50,776 nt of DNA, taken from a virus. Its lineage: Duplodnaviria; Caudoviricetes. Shown here piece by piece: positions 14,112-44,831 of this stretch; the first letter of the stretch is position 1; the number at the start of each line of letters is the position of its first letter. The notes beneath the pieces were generated by a model, which had not been told where the DNA came from, did no database searches, and worked only from the letters and a program-made list of their open reading frames with translations. The translations under genes and the position numbers were made by a program. The stretch spans positions 1 to 50,776 of the IMG/VR virus record IMGVR_UViG_3300036785_000282; one strand, given 5' to 3'.

Positions 14112-14462
14112 ATGAAACTTATTTATATAGCTGGACCATACCGCGCAACTTGTGCATTAAAAACACAACGAAACATCTTTGCAGCAGAAAATTTAGGTAA
14201 ACAATTAACATTACAATGCCCTAACTATTACCCGGTAATTCCACATATGAACACGGCCCTATGGGGTTACGACGCTGGATTAATCAATGTACCGGGTCAA
14301 TATTATTTAGATGGTACTATGGAAATGATGCGCCGCTGTGATGGTGTTTTAGTAGTACCTAACTATTTACGATCTCAAGGTACTATTGCAGAAATTGCTG
14401 AAGCCGAACGGCTGGGAATTCCTGTTTATTATTCTGTTACACAGGTTCCAGTAAATGGCTAA
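14112..14462 (+). CDS. nucleoside 2-deoxyribosyltransferase-like protein (DUF1937/DUF4406-type)
   Basis: IYIAGPY, PVIPH, MRRCD and SQGT.AE..EAERLGIPV motifs. Confidence 0.75.
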   Translation: MKLIYIAGPYRATCALKTQRNIFAAENLGKQLTLQCPNYYPVIPHMNTALWGYDAGLINVPGQYYLDGTMEMMRRCDGVLVVPNYLRSQGTIAEIAEAERLGIPVYYSVTQVPVNG

Positions 14463-15195
14463 GGATAATTGGGAAACCCCGTATGATTTTATCGATAATA
14501 TTAAACAGGAATTCCCGTTAATCCTAGATGTTTGCACGGACGGGAAAAATGCAAAAACTGATTTGTTCCTATGTGATAGTTTAAAATATGATTGGGCCAG
14601 TATTGTAAAAATAAATGGCGGGGGTTATATCTGGTGCAATCCCCCATATTCTGACCCCACACCATGGGCGAATAAACTAGTTAAAACAGTAAAAGAAGGT
14701 GTGGGATCGTTATTTCTCGTCAATGCTATGACTAGTTCAAAATGGTATCATATCGCTTTAAAACACTGTGCTGAACTTTGGACGTTTGAGGGACGCATTT
14801 CATTTATTGATCCAGATACAGGAAAACCGGGAAAAAATAATGATAGATCTCAAGTTATGTTTGTATTCGATCCTAATAAAATAGGACAAGCTGTAAACCG
14901 TTCAGTTAAAGTTTCTGATTATCAAACACACCGCAAAAAATATAGAGAATATTTAACTATGTGCACAATCGTAGAATTTGATCCAATGACAACAAAACGT
15001 TTACCAACTGGTCGTTATTGCCGATTACCATGCACACGGGAACAACTACCCGCTACTTTAATGATGATGGGTATAAACGTACCAATGGATAATAAAGGCG
15101 TGTTAGGCTGGCGCTTGTTTGTTTATCGTGGTGAAATTCCAGTAGGATCAGACTGGAAAGAAACACAGATTCATGAATTAGTTAAAGCCCCTTAA
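14455..15195 (+). CDS. phage DNA N6-adenine methyltransferase with a C-terminal extension
   Basis: WETP, LDVC, WCNPPYS and GRISF motifs. Confidence 0.88.
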   Translation: MAKDNWETPYDFIDNIKQEFPLILDVCTDGKNAKTDLFLCDSLKYDWASIVKINGGGYIWCNPPYSDPTPWANKLVKTVKEGVGSLFLVNAMTSSKWYHIALKHCAELWTFEGRISFIDPDTGKPGKNNDRSQVMFVFDPNKIGQAVNRSVKVSDYQTHRKKYREYLTMCTIVEFDPMTTKRLPTGRYCRLPCTREQLPATLMMMGINVPMDNKGVLGWRLFVYRGEIPVGSDWKETQIHELVKAP

Positions 15196-15202: not shown

Positions 15203-15449
15203 GTTGTATCGCATCAACTAATCCATTATGCCACGCCGCACATTCTATATATTTATCCCGGTACCACTCAGCAGTATTAAAAAGGTCTAGACCAGTTACC
15301 CCCTTCATTTCGTACAAATCATTTATTTGGCACTTTTGTATTAATGCCGCTTGATAAACGGGTTGTTGCTGCTTTAGTTTTTTCGTTGAACAACCTAACA
15401 GCGTCATCAGTAGCACAGATATTAACAAAAACTGGATTGGTTTTTTCAT
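15192..15449 (-). CDS. o-spanin (Rz1-like lipoprotein)
   Basis: Lipobox LLGC; Y.ECA..HN.L motif; overlaps the i-spanin gene. Confidence 0.85.
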   Translation of the reverse strand: MKKPIQFLLISVLLMTLLGCSTKKLKQQQPVYQAALIQKCQINDLYEMKGVTGLDLFNTAEWYRDKYIECAAWHNGLVDAIQQPR

Positions 15450-15690
15450 GATAAGTTTTCTCTACAATAGTTTCGGTGTTTTGTTTCCAGTCACTTAATC
15501 CTTTTAGCACAGTATCGGCAACTTGTTGCTGTGCTAATTGCCGCTGTTGTTCCTGTACCGCCAGATCTAACTTTTCACTTTTTACCAAACTATCCCGCGC
15601 ATCATAACCGTTCTGGTAAGCAAGATAGCAGCTACCAATAAAAGCAACCACAACCAGCGCCGAAACAATGAGAAATGATTTAATACCCAT
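15319..15690 (-). CDS. i-spanin (Rz-like)
   Basis: N-terminal TM helix, coiled coil, NPVF.N.C motif. Confidence 0.85.
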   Translation of the reverse strand: MGIKSFLIVSALVVVAFIGSCYLAYQNGYDARDSLVKSEKLDLAVQEQQRQLAQQQVADTVLKGLSDWKQNTETIVEKTYHEKTNPVFVNICATDDAVRLFNEKTKAATTRLSSGINTKVPNK

Positions 15691-15875
15691 TCTATTACCT
15701 GCCTTTGTGAAATTAGTCTAGCCACCATTGCTAAAATCATCATGATAAATGAAATATACCATGGGAAATAATCACTATAAAACTGGTCTACACCTTCTAT
15801 TATGGTGGCTATAGCAATTAACCAAATTGACCACATCTTGTAAAAGGATTTCCAATCTGGAACAAGTTTACTCAT
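15582..15875 (-). CDS. putative holin/membrane lysis protein
   Basis: MSKLVPDWK..WS start overlapping the endolysin stop; two or three TM segments; ARLI.Q motif. Confidence 0.7.
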   Translation of the reverse strand: MSKLVPDWKSFYKMWSIWLIAIATIIEGVDQFYSDYFPWYISFIMMILAMVARLISQRQVIEWVLNHFSLFRRWLWLLLLVAAILLTRTVMMRGIVW

Positions 15876-16401
15876 AACGGCATAACTCCAATTCATCAGC
15901 CCGGCGCACAGGTTGCCCCGCACAGTTATTAGAACGTATTCGGCAATCCTTACCGCCATCATAAATCCATTTCGGGATCTGTTCACATGCGCCTTTTATA
16001 TCACCTGCATTTATCTTTTTATAAAAAGTAGATGAAAAACATTTTGCCGGGCCGATGTTATAAGGACAAAATGAGGCGATGCCGATTTTCTGAATATCAT
16101 TCAATGGGTATTTTATATTACGATTTACCCATGCTAACGCTTTTTGTGCCTCAATGTTATTGTAATAATCGCACTGGTTCTTACTGAGTTTCATTCCCTT
16201 AGTAATGGATTTACCATCAATGAACGTTACCCCACGGCATATCGTCCAAATACCACCCCCATCACGGTATGCATAGCTATAACCATCTTTGCTTAAACCG
16301 GTACCCTCTTTTTCATCAAGGAATAGGCTTAAGCCACCCGCAGCTGTGAGGGTACCGGCTAGTACCCCAGCTATGATTTTTGAAACGATTTTACTTTTCA
16401 T
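15868..16401 (-). CDS. SAR endolysin, GH24 lysozyme
   Basis: Gly/Ala-rich N-terminal SAR segment; EG..AYRDGGGIWTICRG; YNIG; RR..E. Confidence 0.93.
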   Translation of the reverse strand: MKSKIVSKIIAGVLAGTLTAAGGLSLFLDEKEGTGLSKDGYSYAYRDGGGIWTICRGVTFIDGKSITKGMKLSKNQCDYYNNIEAQKALAWVNRNIKYPLNDIQKIGIASFCPYNIGPAKCFSSTFYKKINAGDIKGACEQIPKWIYDGGKDCRIRSNNCAGQPVRRADELELCRYE

Positions 16402-16729
16402 TTCGTTTGGCCTCTGCTGCTAATTGTGCTCGGAACCCTTCTACTGCAACACGTAGATCGCTTGTGCTTTGGGTTAACTCTTTTACACTGCTTAAAACCT
16501 GTACGTTCTGTTCGGATTGATAGGTCAATTTGATGTCGTGGATGTCCACACGGGATTCTAATTTTTTAACCTGCCCGTAAGTGTTGTTAGTGTATGATTT
16601 TAAACCTTCTATTGATTTTGATTGTTCTTCAAAGGCTTTCTGGAACATGCCATACTGGACTGCCAAGCCGATAAAAAAGGCCGCTAATGGCCAATATTTT
16701 AGAACGGATTTTTCAATGGCATCTGACAT
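16391..16729 (-). CDS. putative holin/antiholin (one TM helix plus coiled coil)
   Basis: First gene of the lysis cassette; one TM helix. Confidence 0.6.
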   Translation of the reverse strand: MSDAIEKSVLKYWPLAAFFIGLAVQYGMFQKAFEEQSKSIEGLKSYTNNTYGQVKKLESRVDIHDIKLTYQSEQNVQVLSSVKELTQSTSDLRVAVEGFRAQLAAEAKRNEK

Positions 16730-30958: not shown

Positions 30959-31984
30959 TTATGCAGAAAGAGCATTATCAAACAAGATACCCAAATCTGG
31001 TGATATCATGGAAATATCGATAGCAAATTCTGCTTCAACGAAATTACCACGGCGGCCTTCAACGCCCGGATACTGACGAATTGCTGGGCCATTTTCCGCA
31101 CCCAGTGCCACAAAGTCATTCCATGCGAAACCAGCAGCGGCAACTGGTGACATATCACCAACGGTTGGCACAACATGGTTCAACATCAGTTTACCTTTTG
31201 CCATGAATTGCAGATCGTTAACTGGGTTACCGTCTGAATCTTCGATACCATCTGAATTCATGTTAACTACGGACTGCATGATCTCAATTTCTTGAACATG
31301 CAGCAATGCAGCTAGCGCATCTTTAGTAATTGCCGCTGGGTTAGTATTGTTACCACCGTAAATAACACGATTCAATACCGCTGGGTGACGTGACAGGGCG
31401 TTAAATACGTCCAGTGTCATCAGCGCTTTGTTCCATGGGCGACCACCTGAACGCAGTGAGAAACCAACTTCCTCACCCAGAATCGTATCGATCGGGTCAG
31501 ATGTTGGATCATCCCAGAATTTAAACTCATTCGTGCCGGTACCGGCAGCAGAACCAGTTAAAGTTTTAGTCCACTTACCGGTTTGCAAAAACTTCTCAGT
31601 AAAGTCAATTTCTTTATTGATCAGCAATACATCAGTAACTAACTGAGTTGCTTCAAAATCAAGATTTTGACCGTTTTGGACGTTTTTACGTTTTTTATCC
31701 GAAATAAAAACACGGATCGCATCGTCATCAACGGCATAACTACCACGGGTGGTTTTATACCCGATGGTATTCGCTACACCATCTTCAGCACGTTTTGAGT
31801 TAACAGGACGGCTAAAGTAACCGGATGGGTATTTAGTAAATGTACCCGCTGCGAAATTAACCGGGACAACCGGGAAATAACGCGTACCGACAAATAAACT
31901 AGTATCCTGCCAGTAAGCAACCGAAAAGTTACTAAGCGGTAGGTCTAGATTAACGTCGCGGTAATCCTGATGATATTGTGGCAT
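30959..31984 (-). CDS. major capsid protein
   Basis: 341 aa; D.PLSNFSVAY start; W.D.TSDP motif; follows the scaffold and decoration genes. Confidence 0.9.
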   Translation of the reverse strand: MPQYHQDYRDVNLDLPLSNFSVAYWQDTSLFVGTRYFPVVPVNFAAGTFTKYPSGYFSRPVNSKRAEDGVANTIGYKTTRGSYAVDDDAIRVFISDKKRKNVQNGQNLDFEATQLVTDVLLINKEIDFTEKFLQTGKWTKTLTGSAAGTGTNEFKFWDDPTSDPIDTILGEEVGFSLRSGGRPWNKALMTLDVFNALSRHPAVLNRVIYGGNNTNPAAITKDALAALLHVQEIEIMQSVVNMNSDGIEDSDGNPVNDLQFMAKGKLMLNHVVPTVGDMSPVAAAGFAWNDFVALGAENGPAIRQYPGVEGRRGNFVEAEFAIDISMISPDLGILFDNALSA

Positions 31985-34138: not shown

Positions 34139-34484
34139 GATGTTTCAGTGTGTCACATCATTCTCTATACTTTTATAATATACATTATTACTTACTTTGG
34201 TAGCTTTTTAAGAGTTTTGTATTTTAAGTGAAACAAGTGAAACATAGTATAAAATAGATTATAAACTCTTAAAAATTAACACTTTTTTCTGTTTCACTTC
34301 TGTGTCACATTGTCGTTTTTGTTTCACTTTGAAGTGACACATACCGGAACGGTATAACTAAATCAAACAATTCGCGTTTCACTGTGTCACTTTGTGTTAC
34401 TTTAACCTGACACAAATACCGAATCGGTATAGTTGTTTATTTTCATACACTTACGAAACTTTGTTTCACATACCGGAACGGTAT
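34139..34484. other. candidate replication origin (iterons, AT-rich core, palindromes)
   Basis: About a dozen TGT(T/G)TCAC-like octamers in both orientations; ATACCG-NNN-CGGTAT at 34341, 34416 and 34470. Confidence 0.65.
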
Positions 34485-35440
34485 CAAACAGATCCGATAT
34501 CTTCAGGTAAACTATATTGAACCCTACACCGGCAATTAATTATATTAGATGCTGTTCCTGCCGGGTCACGTGGAAACATCAACGGCCCCAACGGCGTTGT
34601 AAAAGGTCGGTCTATGGGTATCCATCCATTATTTTCACCAGTACTGATATGAGCATCACGCGCCCTTCCATCGTGACGATAAAGCCAACGTTTCAAAAGT
34701 TCGTTAGATATCGCCCCAGTGACTAATCCCGTGCGTATCGCCTGATCTTGACCCACGCTTACAGCAGTTAGTGATTCGGTTCTGGCAATCGTTTCTGTGC
34801 GCAATTTGACGTATTTAGCACGTTGTTGTTCAACCATAGAATCAATACGCGATTGCGATAATTTAGCCGCTGATTCTACGGCTTCTTTTACTGCTTTATT
34901 CGGTGTAGTTAATGTATTTATATAAGCAGCGTCACCAACTTCTAAAGCTTTTTTAAAACGTTGAACCGTTTTTTCCTGATTAACTGTTAACCCAATCGAT
35001 GACCTAAAATCACGAGCAGTTTGTTTTGGACTTCTTCCAGTAACGATACTATCTGAAACAGCTAACCTAACTGCTTCACGGGTTTCATTGCTTATTTCAC
35101 GAATACGTATACCAGTATAATTTCTGACATACGATGACACCGATGGTAATACTAAACTAAAAGCCAATGGTGCAGTAACAGCAGCGGCTGGAAGAATAGA
35201 AATAACAGATCTTCCAGATTCTAAAATAGCTTGTTCTAATACCGGCATTAATTGTGCCGTTACTTCATCTTCCATATTAGAAAGTAATTGCATTACACCA
35301 GCCACACCTTGTGTAGCAATGATGTTTTCTAATTCCGAAAGTGACCTAGACCGTCTAAGCGTGTCCCATATTAGATAGATCGCCGCTTTTACTTCAGCGT
35401 TATATTTTTCAGCAATTGCGGGATAAGGATCGCGTGACAT
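34484..35440 (-). CDS. head morphogenesis protein (SPP1 gp7 / Mu gpF-like)
   Basis: R.ETIARTE, R.R..H and P.DP..INCRC motifs; start moved to ATG 35440 (MSRDPY). Confidence 0.88.
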   Translation of the reverse strand: MSRDPYPAIAEKYNAEVKAAIYLIWDTLRRSRSLSELENIIATQGVAGVMQLLSNMEDEVTAQLMPVLEQAILESGRSVISILPAAAVTAPLAFSLVLPSVSSYVRNYTGIRIREISNETREAVRLAVSDSIVTGRSPKQTARDFRSSIGLTVNQEKTVQRFKKALEVGDAAYINTLTTPNKAVKEAVESAAKLSQSRIDSMVEQQRAKYVKLRTETIARTESLTAVSVGQDQAIRTGLVTGAISNELLKRWLYRHDGRARDAHISTGENNGWIPIDRPFTTPLGPLMFPRDPAGTASNIINCRCRVQYSLPEDIGSV

Positions 35441-35470
35441 AAAAAAGCCCTTATGTAAATCAATAAGGGC
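35441..35470 (-). terminator. terminator hairpin abutting the head morphogenesis start codon
   Basis: GCCCTTAT..ATAAGGGC-TTTTTT-ATG. Confidence 0.65.
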
Positions 35471-35480
35471 CATTTTAACA

Positions 35481-35624
35481 CTATTTCTTAGAATTTCGTG
35501 ACTTTCTTTGTCTGCAACGTTCCCTACACACCACATGATCTGTTCTTTTCGGTGAAAACCATTCTCCACAAATCGGGCACTTATGCTGTTTGGTTCCACA
35601 ACACGGACAGTAACGCCTATCCAT
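35481..35624 (-). CDS. 47-aa zinc-finger-like protein (MDRRYCPCCGTKQHKCPICGEWFSPKRTDHVVCRERCRQRKSRNSKK)
   Basis: Manual translation; GAGG RBS; CxxC, CxxC, CxxxC and a basic tail. Confidence 0.75.
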   Translation of the reverse strand: MDRRYCPCCGTKQHKCPICGEWFSPKRTDHVVCRERCRQRKSRNSKK

Positions 35625-35708
35625 CACATTTCCTCGCAACTCTATCTTCTTACCGTTTAACGATCATAATGTTTCCCGAGTACCTCACATACTCGAAAAG
35701 GTGAATAA

Positions 35709-36617
35709 ATGGCTACTGAAATTGAAGAAGATTTAGTTACAAAAGATGGTGTTGTGCATAAGCATACCCATAAACACATGCATAAGCAAAAGGCGGAAAA
35801 AATGAGTGAACCAGTAAACGTTTTTGCAGGTCAGCCAATGATGGGCGGCTTCGGTGGCGGTGACGGCTTCGGGCTAGGCGGTGGTGGTATGATCGGCGGT
35901 CTGCTTGTTGGCGCACTGTTAGGCCGTGGCGGATTCGGTGGCTTCGGTGGTGTTGAAGGTCGCGGCTTCGGTGGCGAATCGATCAGCGGCCTAAATAACC
36001 TTCAAGGTGCTATTGATACTAACATCATCCTGCAAAGCCTCGGCGATATTAAAGCCGCTGTTCCGCTGGCTGAATCTCAAGTTCAGTTAGCACTTGCTGG
36101 TTCGACTTCTGATATCACCAGTCAACAGTTGCAACAGACAATCGCGTTACAAAATCAGGGTTTTAATGCCCAATTAGCAACGCAAGCTTCTTTCGCGAAT
36201 ACTGGCGATAAAATCGATAATCTGCAAGCATCAATGGCACTGGCAGTTGCTACGAATCAGTTTAACTGTGTTCAGGCAACCATGGCAGATGGTGAAAAAA
36301 CTCGTGATCTGATCAGTTCCATCGATCGTGATAACCTGAACCGTCTGATTACCACACAGGCTAACGAAATCACTGAATTACGCAATGAACGTAATCGTGA
36401 CGGCGATCGCCATGGTCTGGAAATTAACATGATTAATAACCAGAACCAAAATCAGATGCAGTTCCAGCAGCAGGCACAGGCATTGAATACTTTGGCTCAC
36501 GGTTTAGTTGAAATCGGTCAGATTGCCCGTGCAACTAACTCTAACGTCATCGTGGGTAACACTGGCGCAAGCACTACCGGCGCACAAACAGCAAGCCCTA
36601 CAAACGTTCGTGCGTAA
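35709..36617 (+). CDS. Gly-rich membrane-segment / coiled-coil / Q-N-rich protein of unknown function
   Basis: AAGGTG RBS; own terminator; His-rich N-terminus. Confidence 0.85.
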   Translation: MATEIEEDLVTKDGVVHKHTHKHMHKQKAEKMSEPVNVFAGQPMMGGFGGGDGFGLGGGGMIGGLLVGALLGRGGFGGFGGVEGRGFGGESISGLNNLQGAIDTNIILQSLGDIKAAVPLAESQVQLALAGSTSDITSQQLQQTIALQNQGFNAQLATQASFANTGDKIDNLQASMALAVATNQFNCVQATMADGEKTRDLISSIDRDNLNRLITTQANEITELRNERNRDGDRHGLEINMINNQNQNQMQFQQQAQALNTLAHGLVEIGQIARATNSNVIVGNTGASTTGAQTASPTNVRA

Positions 36618-36627
36618 TAAATAATTT

Positions 36628-36650
36628 AAGCGCCTTTCGGGGCGCTTTTT
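36628..36650 (+). terminator. intrinsic terminator
   Basis: AAGCGCCT-TTCG-GGGCGCTT-TTT. Confidence 0.8.
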
Positions 36651-36664
36651 AAGGAATATTTAAA

Positions 36665-36988
36665 ATGAGTTATAACTTGCAGCAATTGCAACAGCAGCTT
36701 CAATCACAGTTAGACCAAGTTAACCAGATGATCAGTAAACCCGCTGTACAGCCAGCACCGGCTCAAAATATTGAAGCCATGATAAGTGCTGCGGTACAAC
36801 GACAGATAGCCGCTATGGCTCCGAGCGTCAGTTTAATGACGGCTATAGGTGCGGGAATGTCAGAAGATGATCAACGCTGGTTAAGCACTAAGTTAAATGG
36901 CTTACCAGCGTTTTTACAGACCAGTGAAGGGAAAGAAATTATTGCATTAACTTTAGAAGCTTATAAAAAACATCACGGTGAAGAGTGA
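36665..36988 (+). CDS. Gln-rich hypothetical protein (probable partner of the 35709 gene)
   Basis: AAGGA RBS; ORF track. Confidence 0.8.
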   Translation: MSYNLQQLQQQLQSQLDQVNQMISKPAVQPAPAQNIEAMISAAVQRQIAAMAPSVSLMTAIGAGMSEDDQRWLSTKLNGLPAFLQTSEGKEIIALTLEAYKKHHGEE

Positions 36989-37239
36989 CCCCATTTATCT
37001 AAATCGCTGGCGTCTTTAAAAATATCATCACAATATGGCAATCGTGGGTCATTGGTACAAGCCATAGCCGCAAAATTTACACGGTACGCCGATGCCAGCA
37101 TTTTCTTTGCCGCTCTTTTACATTGGCCCGGCGTTTTATGATCTTTACATAACACTTTTATTTGTTCTTCAGCACTAGGGAAATCACTAGCAAAACTGTT
37201 AAAACTTAGCAGGGTAATTAATATCATCGCGTATTTCAT
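36973..37239 (-). CDS. small exported protein with four Cys
   Basis: Signal-peptide-like MKYAMILITLLSFNSFA. Confidence 0.7.
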   Translation of the reverse strand: MKYAMILITLLSFNSFASDFPSAEEQIKVLCKDHKTPGQCKRAAKKMLASAYRVNFAAMACTNDPRLPYCDDIFKDASDLDKWGHSSP

Positions 37240-37438
37240 TTATAAATTTCCTTTGGTTATATAATTGAATTGCCCGTTTTTGTGACTCATTTTTAAAGCT
37301 TTTACGATCTATTACCTTCCCATCATCTAACACTGACCATGACGCCGATTCAAACCTGATCGCTATTTTGGTATCCTTTTTATCTATGTATAAAAGATAG
37401 TGTTTGTTAAACAATACCTTCCATTCAATTTTCATCAA
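37199..37438 (-). CDS. hypothetical protein
   Basis: ORF track; AGGAG RBS. Confidence 0.65.
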   Translation of the reverse strand: MMKIEWKVLFNKHYLLYIDKKDTKIAIRFESASWSVLDDGKVIDRKSFKNESQKRAIQLYNQRKFINEIRDDINYPAKF

Positions 37439-37586
37439 TTTCTCCTTCTATTAGTTCTATCAATTTTTCAAGGTCTTTGGGATCGGAATACTCTAAATTT
37501 AGAGTTGCAGATTTGTATGTCATATTGATTGAAATCTTTGATTTTTCTTCTAATTTGATTGAATTTGGTAATTCTGTATTGTCCAT
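37425..37586 (-). CDS. hypothetical protein (MDNTELP...)
   Basis: Start at ATG 37586 after AAGG; the upstream part of the track ORF is promoter sequence. Confidence 0.65.
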   Translation of the reverse strand: MDNTELPNSIKLEEKSKISINMTYKSATLNLEYSDPKDLEKLIELIEGEIDEN

Positions 37587-37620
37587 TTTATGTGCCTTGT
37601 TGTGTGTGAAAGTGCTTGCA

Positions 37621-37657
37621 ATCATCGCTGACGATGTGTAATGTGTCAAGAAATATT
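37621..37657 (-). promoter_or_regulatory. early-class promoter
   Basis: ATATTTC-TTGACA-17-GATGAT. Confidence 0.6.
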
Positions 37658-39131: not shown

Positions 39132-40481
39132 TTAATCCCCGATCCCCGGTAATCCACCACCTGCACTATCTATACCATCTGTTGGTAAACCCAACTCCTC
39201 ATATAAATGACGTTGTAATTCTTCATCTGGGAATACCGTCGCGCCAGCTTGTGCTAATTTCTGCAATGCAGTAACCAGTACATCAGCAGATTCTTTAGTT
39301 ATTGAACCTGCTCGTAACGTTGGTTTGTATTCTTCAGGAAACGCATTTAATTTCCATAACTGATCAACTAATTGCCGGTTAATGCAAGAGGTATTTGATT
39401 CGACACGGGATTGCATGGCCTTGATCCAAAGCTCTGTGCGGTCACCTAAGTTAGATTGGTTACCGGTGTTACCATTTGTACCAAAAAACAAGAAATCCGC
39501 CAACAAGGCACGGGCTATACCTACATCTAAACGTTTAATTGTCCGGTCGATATCCACGGGATTACTTGCCGATGGTGTAACTAATTCTAATTTAACTTGC
39601 TGTTCACTTGAGTAAGATAAATTTCCATCAGCATCAACGTTTTGATAAGGCTTACTATAAATTACAGCACCTGATTGTTCATTACGCTTGATCCCCTTTA
39701 CCATTTCTTCATAGCTGTTGATGGCTTCAGCGGCGTTGTTCCGTTGCCATTCAGGTATGGATGTGTCAGCAGCAATCTTTTTCAAATCACTATTTACAGT
39801 TAAAACCGGGAAGCCTGTACCGCGTTCAGCTAATACGGATTCTATTTCAAGATGCATTTTCTTGTAATACCATAAACGATACGCGGTTCTTAAAATAGAG
39901 CGACCTTCTGGACTTCCTTTGTTTACACCGGCAATAATATGTAACGATCTGTCTCGTGGGATTATTTTAGAAATACCAGTAGATGGCCCCATTTGTTTAA
40001 CACCGATTACATAGCCATAGGGTTCTTCAATTTCCCATCCCGTGACTGTTTCCGGTGCCACTGCGACTAAACGGGCAATCCCAATAGAACCATCGTCTAA
40101 ATCTTTAATCCAAATGTCATACCACATGAAACCGAAAACATCGTTGTCCGTCCATGTTTGTACAAATGCATCCCATGTGTCATCAGGTAATGCACCGCGC
40201 GGGTCACCCATTGATTCGAATAACGTTTTATTCAGCCAATCGGCATAGCGTACAGATTCAGGATCTTCTTTATCACTAGCATCTGTATACCATGGAATTG
40301 TGCGATATACGCTATTCATAGCCAGCAATACGCCACCTATGGTTTCATCATTTTCGGCCATCTGGCGTAATATTCTACGGCCTGACTGACCATTTAATTT
40401 AGGTAAAAAGTCATCGATTACTTGACCGCCAGCGCGACGATAACCGGCTACGGCTAGTTGATCATATTGGTTTTCTGCCAT
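39132..40481 (-). CDS. portal protein (DUF935/Mu gp29-like)
   Basis: 449 aa; M..ND.TIG, SPEGRSILR.AY..W..K and I.R.D..IAR..LA.F motifs. Confidence 0.9.
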   Translation of the reverse strand: MAENQYDQLAVAGYRRAGGQVIDDFLPKLNGQSGRRILRQMAENDETIGGVLLAMNSVYRTIPWYTDASDKEDPESVRYADWLNKTLFESMGDPRGALPDDTWDAFVQTWTDNDVFGFMWYDIWIKDLDDGSIGIARLVAVAPETVTGWEIEEPYGYVIGVKQMGPSTGISKIIPRDRSLHIIAGVNKGSPEGRSILRTAYRLWYYKKMHLEIESVLAERGTGFPVLTVNSDLKKIAADTSIPEWQRNNAAEAINSYEEMVKGIKRNEQSGAVIYSKPYQNVDADGNLSYSSEQQVKLELVTPSASNPVDIDRTIKRLDVGIARALLADFLFFGTNGNTGNQSNLGDRTELWIKAMQSRVESNTSCINRQLVDQLWKLNAFPEEYKPTLRAGSITKESADVLVTALQKLAQAGATVFPDEELQRHLYEELGLPTDGIDSAGGGLPGIGD

Positions 40482-43043: not shown

Positions 43044-44831
43044 TCACCAGACTGAACCATATTGAGGTGTTCCCACTGTAGAAACACCCGCCATTCCTAA
43101 CACTTCATTATCTACTGCCTTTGGTTTAGGACTCGCACAAATTACCAAGGCATCAAATAAGTTAGGGGATTTTGAACCATTCGGTTTTTTATTGATAGCA
43201 ATTTTACCTGCACCGTTATTATCGTAAGTCGGTTGTGATAATTCGGCTTCCAACTGTTGAGCAAACGGTAATTTACTGTCGATACAAATAATTTCATCAG
43301 GATCTTGCGGTTCGTTTTCCACAACCCATTTATATGTGCGGTGGAATCTCATGCGTAACGCCCATGATGATTGTGCTTTATAATTAGCAAAATAATCTTT
43401 GTTACTGCGTCGGTCAGGGTCGCCCGGTCTAGACCCCGCAATGATATCGCCCGATGGGTCAACAACTTTTGCATTCGGCACCCATGGTTTAACCGGCATT
43501 TTCAAATCGGGCATCAAACTTGCCGCAACTTTTACACCCGTACCAACGCCGGTTGATTCATACCAGTATTCGTCAACACCCATCATATTAGCCATTCCGA
43601 GCATTCCCGGCGCGGCTTTTTCAGCACCACGGTTATCTTGTGCCAGAAAATTAACTAACACACCTTTCATGGTAACTAATGCTGAACTATCTTCACCACC
43701 ATCAGCAGCATCTTGCCCGGCGACTTTCTTCCCTGTTGGCTCTATGCCAAGTTTAATATGAGCGTCGATAGCAGCACGAACCCATGCCGCAGGAATCAAT
43801 ACACCTTGTACCGACGCGGCATAATCTCTATCCACTTCCTGCGCAAATATATGTGATAAGCCATCATCTTCTTTAGATTTCTTCTCTATATTGTACCATT
43901 CCTGATCTTTGCCGGGATGATCGCGCCAATCTAAAATAAGAACCCATGTTTTACCTTTGGGTATCTTTTTATCGGGTTCCCATTCTACGCCAGCCATTCT
44001 ACGCCGGTAAAATACGTTACCTATACCATTTACAGACGATATATCTATACGAACGTTGGTGTTAGCTGACAATGACGCTTCAATCAACTCAGGTCGGTCT
44101 ACGTGCGCGGCTTCATCCAGAAAATAGATAGATTTACGACCGCCGCGACCAATGTTATCACCGGCCTCACCTGTTATCGTTGCACCGTTCTCAGGGTTAA
44201 TACATTTCATAAAGGTGCAGTGATCTTTTTCTCTAAATCCCCGTGGTTTTAACTCATCAGGAAGATAGCGAATAATTAACCTGATTTTCTCAAAAATACT
44301 GTCTGGGTCGCCTAACTTATCTACCAAAATTTCTTTTCGGCTTCCCCAACCCACCGACGAACCGTTGCGATATTTCCAGATCCACACCGACATAGCAGCG
44401 GCTACCCATGTTGCGCCATAATCACGGGACTTTTCCAACAAACCTTTGGCTTTCTTTTCCAGCGCCTCATAAATGAATTGAACCAAGTCAATTTGGCGCA
44501 AGAACATGCCGAAAGGCATAGTTGTAGGTATTTCGGTACCGGCGTTACGTGGGTCATAGGTAATGCACCAGTCAAGAACAAATGCCACCGGGTTAGTAGA
44601 ATAATATTTATCCATGATCGTTTTCGCTTGCGGGTTAGTTCGCAGCTGGTTGATCATTTCGATACGGTCACGGAAACAACGCGTGTAATCAGGGCGCGGC
44701 TTGTCATGCAACCACACACGGTAATCATCGCGGTAACAGTCTGCCCATCTTCCACGTTGTGGTAACAAGCCGGTGTATTTATCCATAGCGGGTACGAGTT
44801 TCCAAAGTCGGGTATTGAGCGATTGTATCAC
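43044..44831 (-). CDS. terL: terminase large subunit
   Basis: KSRDYGATW, GRGGR..YFLDEAAH, GQDAADGGED and SPNLFDAL motifs; the true start may be ATG 44786. Confidence 0.95.
   Translation of the reverse strand: MIQSLNTRLWKLVPAMDKYTGLLPQRGRWADCYRDDYRVWLHDKPRPDYTRCFRDRIEMINQLRTNPQAKTIMDKYYSTNPVAFVLDWCITYDPRNAGTEIPTTMPFGMFLRQIDLVQFIYEALEKKAKGLLEKSRDYGATWVAAAMSVWIWKYRNGSSVGWGSRKEILVDKLGDPDSIFEKIRLIIRYLPDELKPRGFREKDHCTFMKCINPENGATITGEAGDNIGRGGRKSIYFLDEAAHVDRPELIEASLSANTNVRIDISSVNGIGNVFYRRRMAGVEWEPDKKIPKGKTWVLILDWRDHPGKDQEWYNIEKKSKEDDGLSHIFAQEVDRDYAASVQGVLIPAAWVRAAIDAHIKLGIEPTGKKVAGQDAADGGEDSSALVTMKGVLVNFLAQDNRGAEKAAPGMLGMANMMGVDEYWYESTGVGTGVKVAASLMPDLKMPVKPWVPNAKVVDPSGDIIAGSRPGDPDRRSNKDYFANYKAQSSWALRMRFHRTYKWVVENEPQDPDEIICIDSKLPFAQQLEAELSQPTYDNNGAGKIAINKKPNGSKSPNLFDALVICASPKPKAVDNEVLGMAGVSTVGTPQYGSVW

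Follow-up and report, generated by a model that had tools for sequence, protein, structure and literature searches.

Morons that carry membrane proteins for superinfection exclusion are known from several phages, with HK97 gp15, P22 SieA and T4 Imm as examples. An effector accompanied by a small soluble partner and a small, divergently encoded nucleic-acid-binding protein is a common arrangement in exclusion, abortive-infection and toxin–antitoxin modules, and phages also encode small zinc-finger regulators such as P2 Ogr and Mu Com. Among membrane helices that self-associate, including those of transmembrane channel formers such as VacA, hydrophobic stretches with glycine-zipper spacing are a known motif; OsmB/SlyB-type members of the Pfam glycine-zipper families have a lipoprotein signal peptide with a lipobox cysteine before the zipper. 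The type VI secretion system effector Tde1 is also reported to have a glycine zipper (PMC10240207). Here we analyse a three-gene cassette in IMG/VR virus record IMGVR_UViG_3300036785_000282, the whole of which (50,776 bases, completeness rating 91%) we call the window. The cassette consists of a gene for a 302-amino-acid (302-aa) protein, referred to as the main protein, a following gene for a 107-aa partner, and a divergent gene for a zinc-ribbon (Zn-ribbon) protein. The three genes are real and conserved and form one cassette, which, by analogy, most resembles in kind the morons that encode membrane-acting proteins.

All three reading frames proposed in an earlier note on this DNA are in place (Table 1). 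The divergent frame spans 35481-35639 on the − strand and encodes 52 aa from a TTG or 47 aa from the ATG at 35624, which has GAGGAA 5–7 nt upstream and is most likely the start of the gene. From the sequence, the start signals of both transcription units should lie in the 84-bp region between the divergent genes; other intergenic stretches of the window contain no promoter-like motif in common with it. Hairpins with U runs stand at both ends of the cassette region, after the main gene and after the Zn-ribbon gene. The former bears out the earlier assignment of a terminator to the 302-aa gene itself (36628-36647 plus U5, −12.2 kcal/mol, z-score −2.08, 5 of 200 shuffles as stable); a terminator scan listed this hairpin on the − strand only. 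An AAGGA ribosome-binding site separates it from the partner gene, after which no terminator comparable to the two hairpins was seen. A further candidate hairpin, 5′ of the ribosome-binding site of the main gene, was rejected as a real element (z-score −1.5, not significant).

The hairpin after the Zn-ribbon gene is the more stable (−14.8 kcal/mol, z-score −4.05, equalled by 0 of 200 shuffles) and abuts the probable start codon of a MuF-like gene, an ATG at 35440. Homology to MuF relatives begins at residue 48-57 of the long open reading frame (ORF), and the matching ATG is residue 54; the sole Shine–Dalgarno-like AAGGG near this start sits in the descending arm of the hairpin. Since the hairpin ends 1–2 nt before the likely start, MuF transcription would have to read through it. 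The space between hairpin and start is too small for a promoter, and in the window the leftward MuF transcription unit may use the Zn-ribbon gene as its leader as well.

Table 1. Positions of the cassette elements and of landmark genes in the window.
Feature	Position	Strand	Remarks
Lysis cassette	15319-16729		holin, endolysin, Rz-like spanin; PHROG matches
Major head protein gene	30959-31984	−	PHROG match
MuF-like gene	34484-35599	−	PHROG match
Terminator-like hairpin	35441-35471	−	9-bp stem and U6 run; directly 3′ of Zn-ribbon gene
Zn-ribbon gene	35481-35624	−	two CxxC pairs, then C..RCR.RK; basic C-terminal tail; divergent from main gene
Divergent intergenic region, 84 bp	35625-35708	.	6-bp inverted repeat just upstream of ribosome-binding site of main gene
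Main gene (302 aa)	35709-36617	+	ORF
His/Lys-rich stretch	35757-35801	+	residues 17-31; variable, predicted-disordered N-terminus
Gly-rich hydrophobic segment	35844-35951	+	residues 46-81; G60-x3-G64-x3-G68-x3-G72
Predicted single long α-helix	36018-36548	+	residues 104-280; AlphaFold2, block pLDDT (predicted local distance difference test) 61-95
Invariant DGEKTR..LI motif	36288-36314	+	residues 194-202; 28-sequence alignment; inside predicted helix
Invariant Gln/Asn motif NNQNQNQMQFQQQAQ	36435-36479	+	residues 243-257; 28-sequence alignment
Conserved C-terminal tail	36549-36614	+	residues 281-302; Q293, A295, P297, N299 invariant; predicted disordered
Terminator-like hairpin	36628-36652	+	8-bp GC-rich stem and U5; between main and partner genes
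Partner gene (107 aa)	36665-36988	+	ORF
Portal gene	39132-40481	−	PHROG match
Large terminase gene	43044-44831	−	PHROG match

By sequence similarity the main protein is a member of a large phage and prophage family. A word-indexed search returned 424 proteins at E ≤ 1e-3, and an exhaustive profile search returned the representatives of 690 clusters built at 50% identity, with 403 at E ≤ 1e-10 and 186 at E ≤ 1e-30. Most homologues come from metagenomes or phage-sized contigs, and some are chromosomal (Citrobacter, Klebsiella aerogenes, Serratia, Enterobacter and Lelliottia). The family moves among unrelated phages of Gamma- and Betaproteobacteria. The three elements that the earlier note had picked out, namely a His-rich start, a Gly-flanked hydrophobic segment and a NNQNQNQMQFQQQ tract, are all found in the protein. 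Relatives are often, though not always, H/K- or K/R-rich at the N-terminus, and many have 8–10 K/R residues just upstream of the hydrophobic segment. Of 120 homologues, 103 keep the GxxxGxxxGxxxG pattern of this segment, in which Leu, Ile or Val stand between the glycines; the median 15-residue Kyte–Doolittle hydrophobicity of the segment is 1.78. In an alignment of 28 family sequences, G55, G57, G58 and G63 are invariant, conserved blocks surround residues 110-131, and insertions and deletions cluster around residues 150-190. The Gln/Asn tract, described earlier as low-complexity, turned out to be conserved more strongly than any other motif of the family: N246, Q247, Q249, Q251, Q253 and Q255 are invariant in the 28 sequences, and its family pattern NNQNQNQxQFQQQAQ (243-257) recovered relatives when used as a search pattern. 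The conserved tail sits at the extreme end of the protein, with profile positions 311-315 of 315 at most about 6 residues from the terminus in nearly all of the best 150 listed relatives.

AlphaFold2 modelled the main protein as one long helix with disorder at residues 1-61 and 281-302 (predicted template modelling score 0.23), and this monomer model is silent on whether the helix folds back or bundles. We describe the protein as a predicted helical rod. The same region had been read as heptad-like, and we rejected a heptad repeat: the hydrophobic period near 3.5 residues is not above shuffled controls, so that a canonical coiled coil is unsupported. The strongest periodicity signal, at 2.25 residues in 104-160, barely exceeds its controls (40.4 versus a shuffled 95th percentile of 35.2). 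One 699-aa protein (P0123) joins terminase GpA ATPase and nuclease domains to a main-type C-terminal part; as a genuine fused form it was set aside, being probably a gene-calling or assembly artefact.

Profile searches against Pfam, PHROG and NCBIfam matched the cassette to no standard siphovirus function, in agreement with the earlier note. The Pfam glycine-zipper families (Gly-zipper_Omp, Gly-zipper_YMGG, Gly-zipper_OmpA and Rick_17kDa_Anti) gave no match at E ≤ 1 among the 28 members, and the first 60 residues of the main protein have no Cys and no signal-peptide-like start, hence no lipobox. Near it the ESM Atlas held only unnamed viral clusters. A PADLOC match to PDC-M63A (E 0.003) was rejected because it is present in only 1 of the 28 family members. 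The protein did match phrog_8119 (1.7e-10) and phrog_9288 (1.8e-4), two families of unknown function. The former includes KPP23 ORF074 as a full-length member, and the Gly-zipper region of that protein aligns to the main-family profile (hhalign 96.1%); P400 gp43 is a full-length member of the latter, with 97.3% for the Gly-zipper region of P400 gp43/Segz_24. This profile match, together with the common Gly-zipper and helical architecture, places both PHROGs in one superfamily with the main family, although only about 50 N-terminal columns of the KPP23/P400-type proteins align at profile level. The P400-type proteins differ in being shorter (231-238 aa), in their CCC and terminal CC motifs and in the small genes that follow. 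In P400 and Segz_1 these are three conserved genes of unknown function (phrog_9157, phrog_8329 and phrog_7239) instead of the partner; P400 gp42 (L077:1326-1634) is His-rich. KPP23 ORF073, in phrog_7894, corresponds to the second of two partner types described below (type B; hhalign 96.5%). The three nearest PHROGs are all annotated as of unknown function and thus provide a family but no mechanism.

In the 107-aa partner the Gln-rich character noted earlier belongs to the N-terminal half, which is variable, while about 45 residues at the C-terminal end form a conserved helical module. The protein lacks a signal peptide and Cys, and without Cys it has no lipobox and is not a lipoprotein. Its AlphaFold2 model is all helices (mean pLDDT 80.7); residues 61-107, in blocks of 89-97, form three short helices (H67-75, H77-84 and H87-103). 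Its 71 database homologues are all unnamed. No Pfam domain was found in it, PADLOC-DB 2.0 gave no match, tblastn against the phage collection gave none at E ≤ 0.1, and Foldseek with the model against the PDB returned nothing at E ≤ 0.001; the ESM Atlas gave no usable feature match, only helical look-alikes at a TM score of 0.5. Complex prediction for the main protein and the partner scored 0.00 twice, in runs without controls that say nothing either way.

The Zn-ribbon protein is 72% identical to an unannotated ORF in Dickeya phage Sucellus. With it as query, tblastn matched 11 phage records representing 8 distinct phages; among the 6 cultured carriers inspected, the gene diverges from a main-type gene in 5 (At2, Sucellus, P400, Segz_1 and KPP23). 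It is unannotated in Sucellus (MH059634), where 82 bp lie between it and a main gene truncated to 121 aa, in At2 (PQ656108), where a 119-bp spacer separates it from the main gene, and in Segz_1 (MH791402), where it diverges from Segz_24; in P400 it is gp44 and diverges from gp43. In KPP23 (AB910392, ORF075) and Pollock (KM236242, gp80) the match lies in a frame other than that of the annotated coding sequence. Unannotated or mis-framed in several GenBank phages, the gene had thus kept the cassette from being visible as a unit. The ORF is unannotated in phage RSP (MK803322) as well. The short main-type gene of Sucellus (L003:5788-6153) stops after the first conserved helix block beside an intact Zn-ribbon neighbour, and may be a decaying cassette or a short variant.

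With its two CxxC pairs, basic tail and about 50 residues, the Zn-ribbon protein resembles the N-terminal Zn ribbon of lambda NinG/Rap, P2 Ogr and Mu Com. It has weak, sub-threshold matches to the NinG N-terminus, Prok-RING_1 and YacG, and also to phrog_171 on the NinG side. The match to the NinG/Rap family PF05766 reaches 16.2 bits over residues 16-49, below the cut-off of 25.4, and covers only about the first 37 profile positions; the protein differs from NinG in having no nuclease domain. The Ogr/Delta model gave no match at E ≤ 0.01, and PADLOC-DB 2.0 gave matches only at E > 0.2.

We surveyed gene neighbourhoods in 74 loci with a main-type protein, from 5 bacterial genomes, at least 66 IMG/VR records and 3 GenBank phages. 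Because the loci were found by motif patterns and the listing is incomplete, all counts describe this sample and not the whole family. ORFs were called mechanically as the longest frame, which makes start sites and spacers approximate, and four pairs are duplicates (L005/L013, L020/L021, L043/L045 and L063/L064). A hidden Markov model (HMM) of the partner (type A) found a homologue adjoining the main gene in 26 of the 74 loci; 23 of these homologues share the strand of the main gene and lie downstream of it, and 3 are on the opposite strand. A type B partner, with a KFARFxQS-like ending, is present in 9 of 74, one of which (L006) matches both types. By hhalign the two types score 61.6% (E 7.8e-5), which is suggestive of type B being a diverged version of type A. 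One or other type adjoins the main gene in all 14 loci with the best main-gene scores, two of which share one sequence, and stands beside 32 of 70 distinct main sequences. With the Zn-ribbon HMM, 13 of 74 loci had that gene as the immediate upstream neighbour of the main gene (ten divergent, three co-directional), at 17-176 bp in twelve and 1090 bp in one; of the 14 closest loci 8 contain it, and a further one starts at the main gene and cannot be judged. Ten distinct main sequences have neither a partner nor a collagen-like neighbour, at least 5 of them within 113 bases of a contig end. The layout of effector, partner and divergent zinc-finger gene thus recurs in unrelated phages, as the earlier note had asked of it, and since the three genes co-occur in other phages we treat the trio as a unit.

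The surroundings of the cassette bear on what kind of unit it is. The MuF-like protein of the window shares 63-66% identity with its counterparts in Salmonella phages 9NA, Sasha, Sergei and Solent and in related Escherichia and Klebsiella phages, and the host phage is a 9NA/Sasha-like siphovirus; it is probably virulent, as no integrase occurs among the PHROG matches of the window. The earlier note had placed the genes inside the head module. By position this holds, but what they occupy is an accessory island between the MuF-like and portal genes, where the main gene runs opposite to the head genes. The position is the counterpart of an island in 9NA, where small genes including a dUTPase likewise separate MuF from portal, and where genes other than the cassette lie upstream of MuF. 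None of the 24 records with a MuF at 60-80% identity was matched by the main protein in tblastn. Among 50,697 phage records, that search matched four: At2, PhiPLPE (two records) and Sucellus. At DNA level, megablast with 35400-37100 found no match in the phage collection.

Elsewhere the cassette takes up quite different positions. It lies between a different MuF gene and the head protease on the strand of the head genes (L010), divergent from head genes (L029), beside the prohead protease (P400) or near the terminase (KPP23). In other loci it follows tail-fibre genes (L012), in one case at a prophage end beside HicAB-like genes and purB (L004), or comes after tailspike, holin and endolysin genes (L014) or before holin and endolysin (L033). 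In a lambdoid prophage (L005) it is inverted and sits between Q and Rz; further positions are next to thymidylate synthase (L011) and, in a more distant clade with collagen-like neighbours, behind ribonucleotide reductase. Such varied placement, with absence from MuF-sharing relatives, points to a portable accessory cassette rather than core morphogenesis, and we conclude that the trio is a horizontally mobile accessory cassette outside the core head, tail and lysis machinery.

Two features by which morons are recognised are present: the genes are absent at the same place in relatives, with no match in 9NA/Sasha-type phages, and the unit has its own terminators in the form of two U-run hairpins. 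Exclusion morons (see PMC3594210 and PMC10883804) share with the cassette a self-contained position amid late or structural genes and a patchy distribution among relatives. Further likenesses are terminator-like end hairpins and a predicted membrane-associated product. The cassette differs in having three genes, among them a Zn ribbon and a soluble partner, in the absence of a detected sigma-70-like promoter and in its probably virulent host phage. The likeness to the glycine-zipper proteins VacA and Tde1 is at motif level only, a GxxxGxxxGxxxG in a hydrophobic stretch, and the family differs from the Pfam glycine-zipper families in the failed profile matches given above. Every functional family considered departs from the cassette in at least one defining feature open to check.

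Our leading reading, which we hold tentatively, is that of a mobile, moron-like cassette that acts at the membrane or envelope with a partner and a regulator and is not part of the head machinery. By way of its GxxxGxxxGxxxG segment the main protein would associate with itself, either within the cytoplasmic membrane or at the membrane surface, and the long α-helical rod of the protein would bring the invariant Gln motif and the C-terminal tail into contact with a conserved cellular target or with each other. The host cell envelope would then be where the cassette acts, probably by excluding or aborting other phages or by conditioning the membrane in some other way. The 107-aa protein, with its helices, would serve as a cytoplasmic modulator, immunity factor or chaperone; it could bind the rod if the rod is cytoplasmic, and not if it is periplasmic. 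The 47-aa Zn ribbon with its basic tail would be a nucleic-acid-binding regulator of the divergent promoter region. The conserved elements stay the same across phages of very different hosts and morphotypes, which speaks for a cellular target that is itself conserved and against a docking site on the virion. Also in favour of an envelope role are the glycine-zipper spacing, the K/R residues ahead of it in many relatives, and the combination of effector, soluble partner and divergent nucleic-acid-binding protein familiar from exclusion, abortive-infection and toxin–antitoxin modules.

Several observations weigh against this reading. The hydrophobic core of the Gly segment is only 12–15 residues long, which makes membrane insertion uncertain; the charge bias around it is weak (median K+R of 2 upstream versus 1 downstream), and relatives of the P400 gp43 type have no basic N-terminus. 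For the main protein, Pfam gave no family at E ≤ 0.01 and NCBIfam no match, PDB sequences matched the family profile only through composition-driven hits to DnaJ G/F regions (E 0.04-0.1), and PADLOC-DB 2.0 held no defence profile common to the family, its lone match being spurious. No sigma-70-like site was listed in 35625-35708 by a scan limited to that promoter type. The leftward MuF/head transcription unit may simply begin with the Zn-ribbon gene; P400 has this gene immediately ahead of the prohead protease, and in Pollock its neighbour is an N4 gp69-like gene, with no main-type gene present. The motif-based sampling limits what the counts can carry. Finally, head, packaging or tail-fibre genes very often border the cassette directly and collagen-like neighbours are frequent, and both observations fit a structural role.

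These two observations lead to the strongest competitor, in which the 302-aa protein is a virion fibre, whisker or ejected 'pilot' protein and the downstream gene encodes its assembly chaperone; the Gly-rich segment would insert into the host membrane on infection, like tape-measure or ejection proteins. We consider this unlikely, yet it keeps real weight because of the recurrent head and tail-fibre placement and the collagen-like neighbours. The cassette adjoins head or packaging genes in the window, L010, L029, P400, Segz_1 and KPP23, and tail-fibre or spike genes in L004, L012, L014, L034, PhiPLPE and Sucellus. A collagen-like protein, called by a Gly-X-Y regular expression, lies at most 700 bp downstream of 28 of 70 distinct main sequences, a count that may exceed the truth by a few and includes some loci whose immediate neighbour is Dps-like; in L036 and L039 the collagen-like gene stands between main and partner genes. 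A long rod followed by a small helical protein is also the order of fibre-plus-chaperone pairs, and the depositors named PhiPLPE gp38 a 'putative tail-fiber protein'. The PhiPLPE record, however, notes 'confirmed by MS' on gp34 and gp35 and not on gp38, and the main gene is missing from 9NA/Sasha-type relatives with the same head genes. The protein spans sipho-, myo- and podovirus-type genomes and a P2-like prophage end, for which a common docking site is improbable, and its gene runs opposite to the structural genes in the window, L005 and L029. As a rule of thumb, tail fibres have a conserved N-terminal virion anchor and a variable C-terminal receptor-binding end; here the C-terminus is conserved and the N-terminus variable. 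Nor did the main protein match any head- or tail-category PHROG, any tail-fibre PHROG or any Pfam family.

The head–rod–tail layout could alternatively belong to a soluble cytoplasmic scaffold, intermediate-filament-like or condensate-forming, in which a Gly/Phe-rich head, a helical rod and a Q/N-rich zipper organise some cytoplasmic step of infection and the Gly segment mediates self-association away from the membrane. The weak, composition-driven matches to the DnaJ G/F region and to keratin head are in line with this, as are the lack of signal peptides in the partner, the Zn ribbon and the collagen-like neighbours and, in P400-type proteins, a less hydrophobic Gly segment without a basic N-terminus. 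We regard it as improbable, given that most homologues keep the strict zipper with Leu/Ile/Val between the glycines and that the rod has no significant heptad or other periodicity. Less probable by far is a spanin-kind lysis accessory, an inner-membrane-anchored rod that spans the periplasm and disrupts or fuses the envelope at lysis. Like Rz/Rz1, the main protein would have an N-terminal hydrophobic anchor, a long helix (if straight, some 26 nm) and, at the C-terminus, a conserved end able to meet a partner, in a type-II-like layout with a basic N-terminus, and the cassette lies next to lysis genes in L014, L033 and L005. It is about twice the length of an i-spanin, however, and its gene is far from the lysis genes of the window and on the other strand. 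Such a role is unlikely because the host phage has its own Rz-like gene and L005 its own Rz, because KPP23, like 9NA, is among the phages listed with two-component spanins (PMC6139136), and because the partner, having no Cys, is not a lipoprotein.

The collagen-like neighbours typify a more distant clade, where they stand in place of the partner. Across L040-L074 they form a family (for example L041:5623-6222, L056:5713-6207, L063:5581-6555) that is conserved both in a Pro-rich motif at the N-terminus and in a C-terminal domain of about 90 residues, and that is encoded among ribonucleotide reductase, PhoH and dUTPase genes and not in a tail module. An extension of the envelope-acting reading, which we hold to be doubtful, would make the cassette a new envelope-spanning class: an inner-membrane glycine-zipper oligomer with a rod of about 26 nm, controlled by the Zn ribbon, assembled or restrained by the partner and, in the sister clade, joined to a collagen-like protein. 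The Gln ladder and C-terminal tail of the rod would bind a conserved component of the envelope, and the outcome would be superinfection exclusion, abortive infection or membrane fusion.

Literature searches on glycine zipper, prophage, coiled-coil and broader terms found nothing on the main family, and main-text passages of the phiPLPE, KPP23 and P400 papers, supplements aside, contain nothing on the cassette genes; the protein architecture and the three-gene layout were not found described in the literature searched. The family comprises hundreds of sequence clusters with strictly invariant motifs, a fixed neighbour-gene logic and no assigned function. Its cultured carriers, Pseudomonas phages KPP23 and RSP, Yersinia phage P400, Acinetobacter phage At2 and Salmonella phage Segz_1, make its role directly testable. 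Should the cassette prove to be an exclusion or abortive device that acts on the envelope, phage–phage competition would gain a new protein architecture; should it prove structural, it would represent a new and portable appendage of the virion that brings along a chaperone and a regulator of its own.

The remainder of the window carries, by PHROG matches, a full siphovirus gene set. It includes replication genes (primase, helicase and polymerase), tail genes (tape measure, central fibre and tail fibre) and, on the − strand with the head set, scaffold-like and XkdF-type protease genes. Beyond the partner gene, an 88-aa ORF at 36973-37239 (−), with a signal-peptide-like start, four Cys and a match to phrog_21025 (unknown function), converges on the 107-aa gene and overlaps its 3′ end by 16 nt; two further small − strand ORFs follow, at 37199-37438 and 37425-37649. 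The window also encodes a PAPS-reductase-like protein at 2058-2912 (−; phrog_424) and, at 14455-15195 (+), a DNA methyltransferase-like protein with a second, weak PAPS-reductase-like match; these proteins may have a DNA-modification function.

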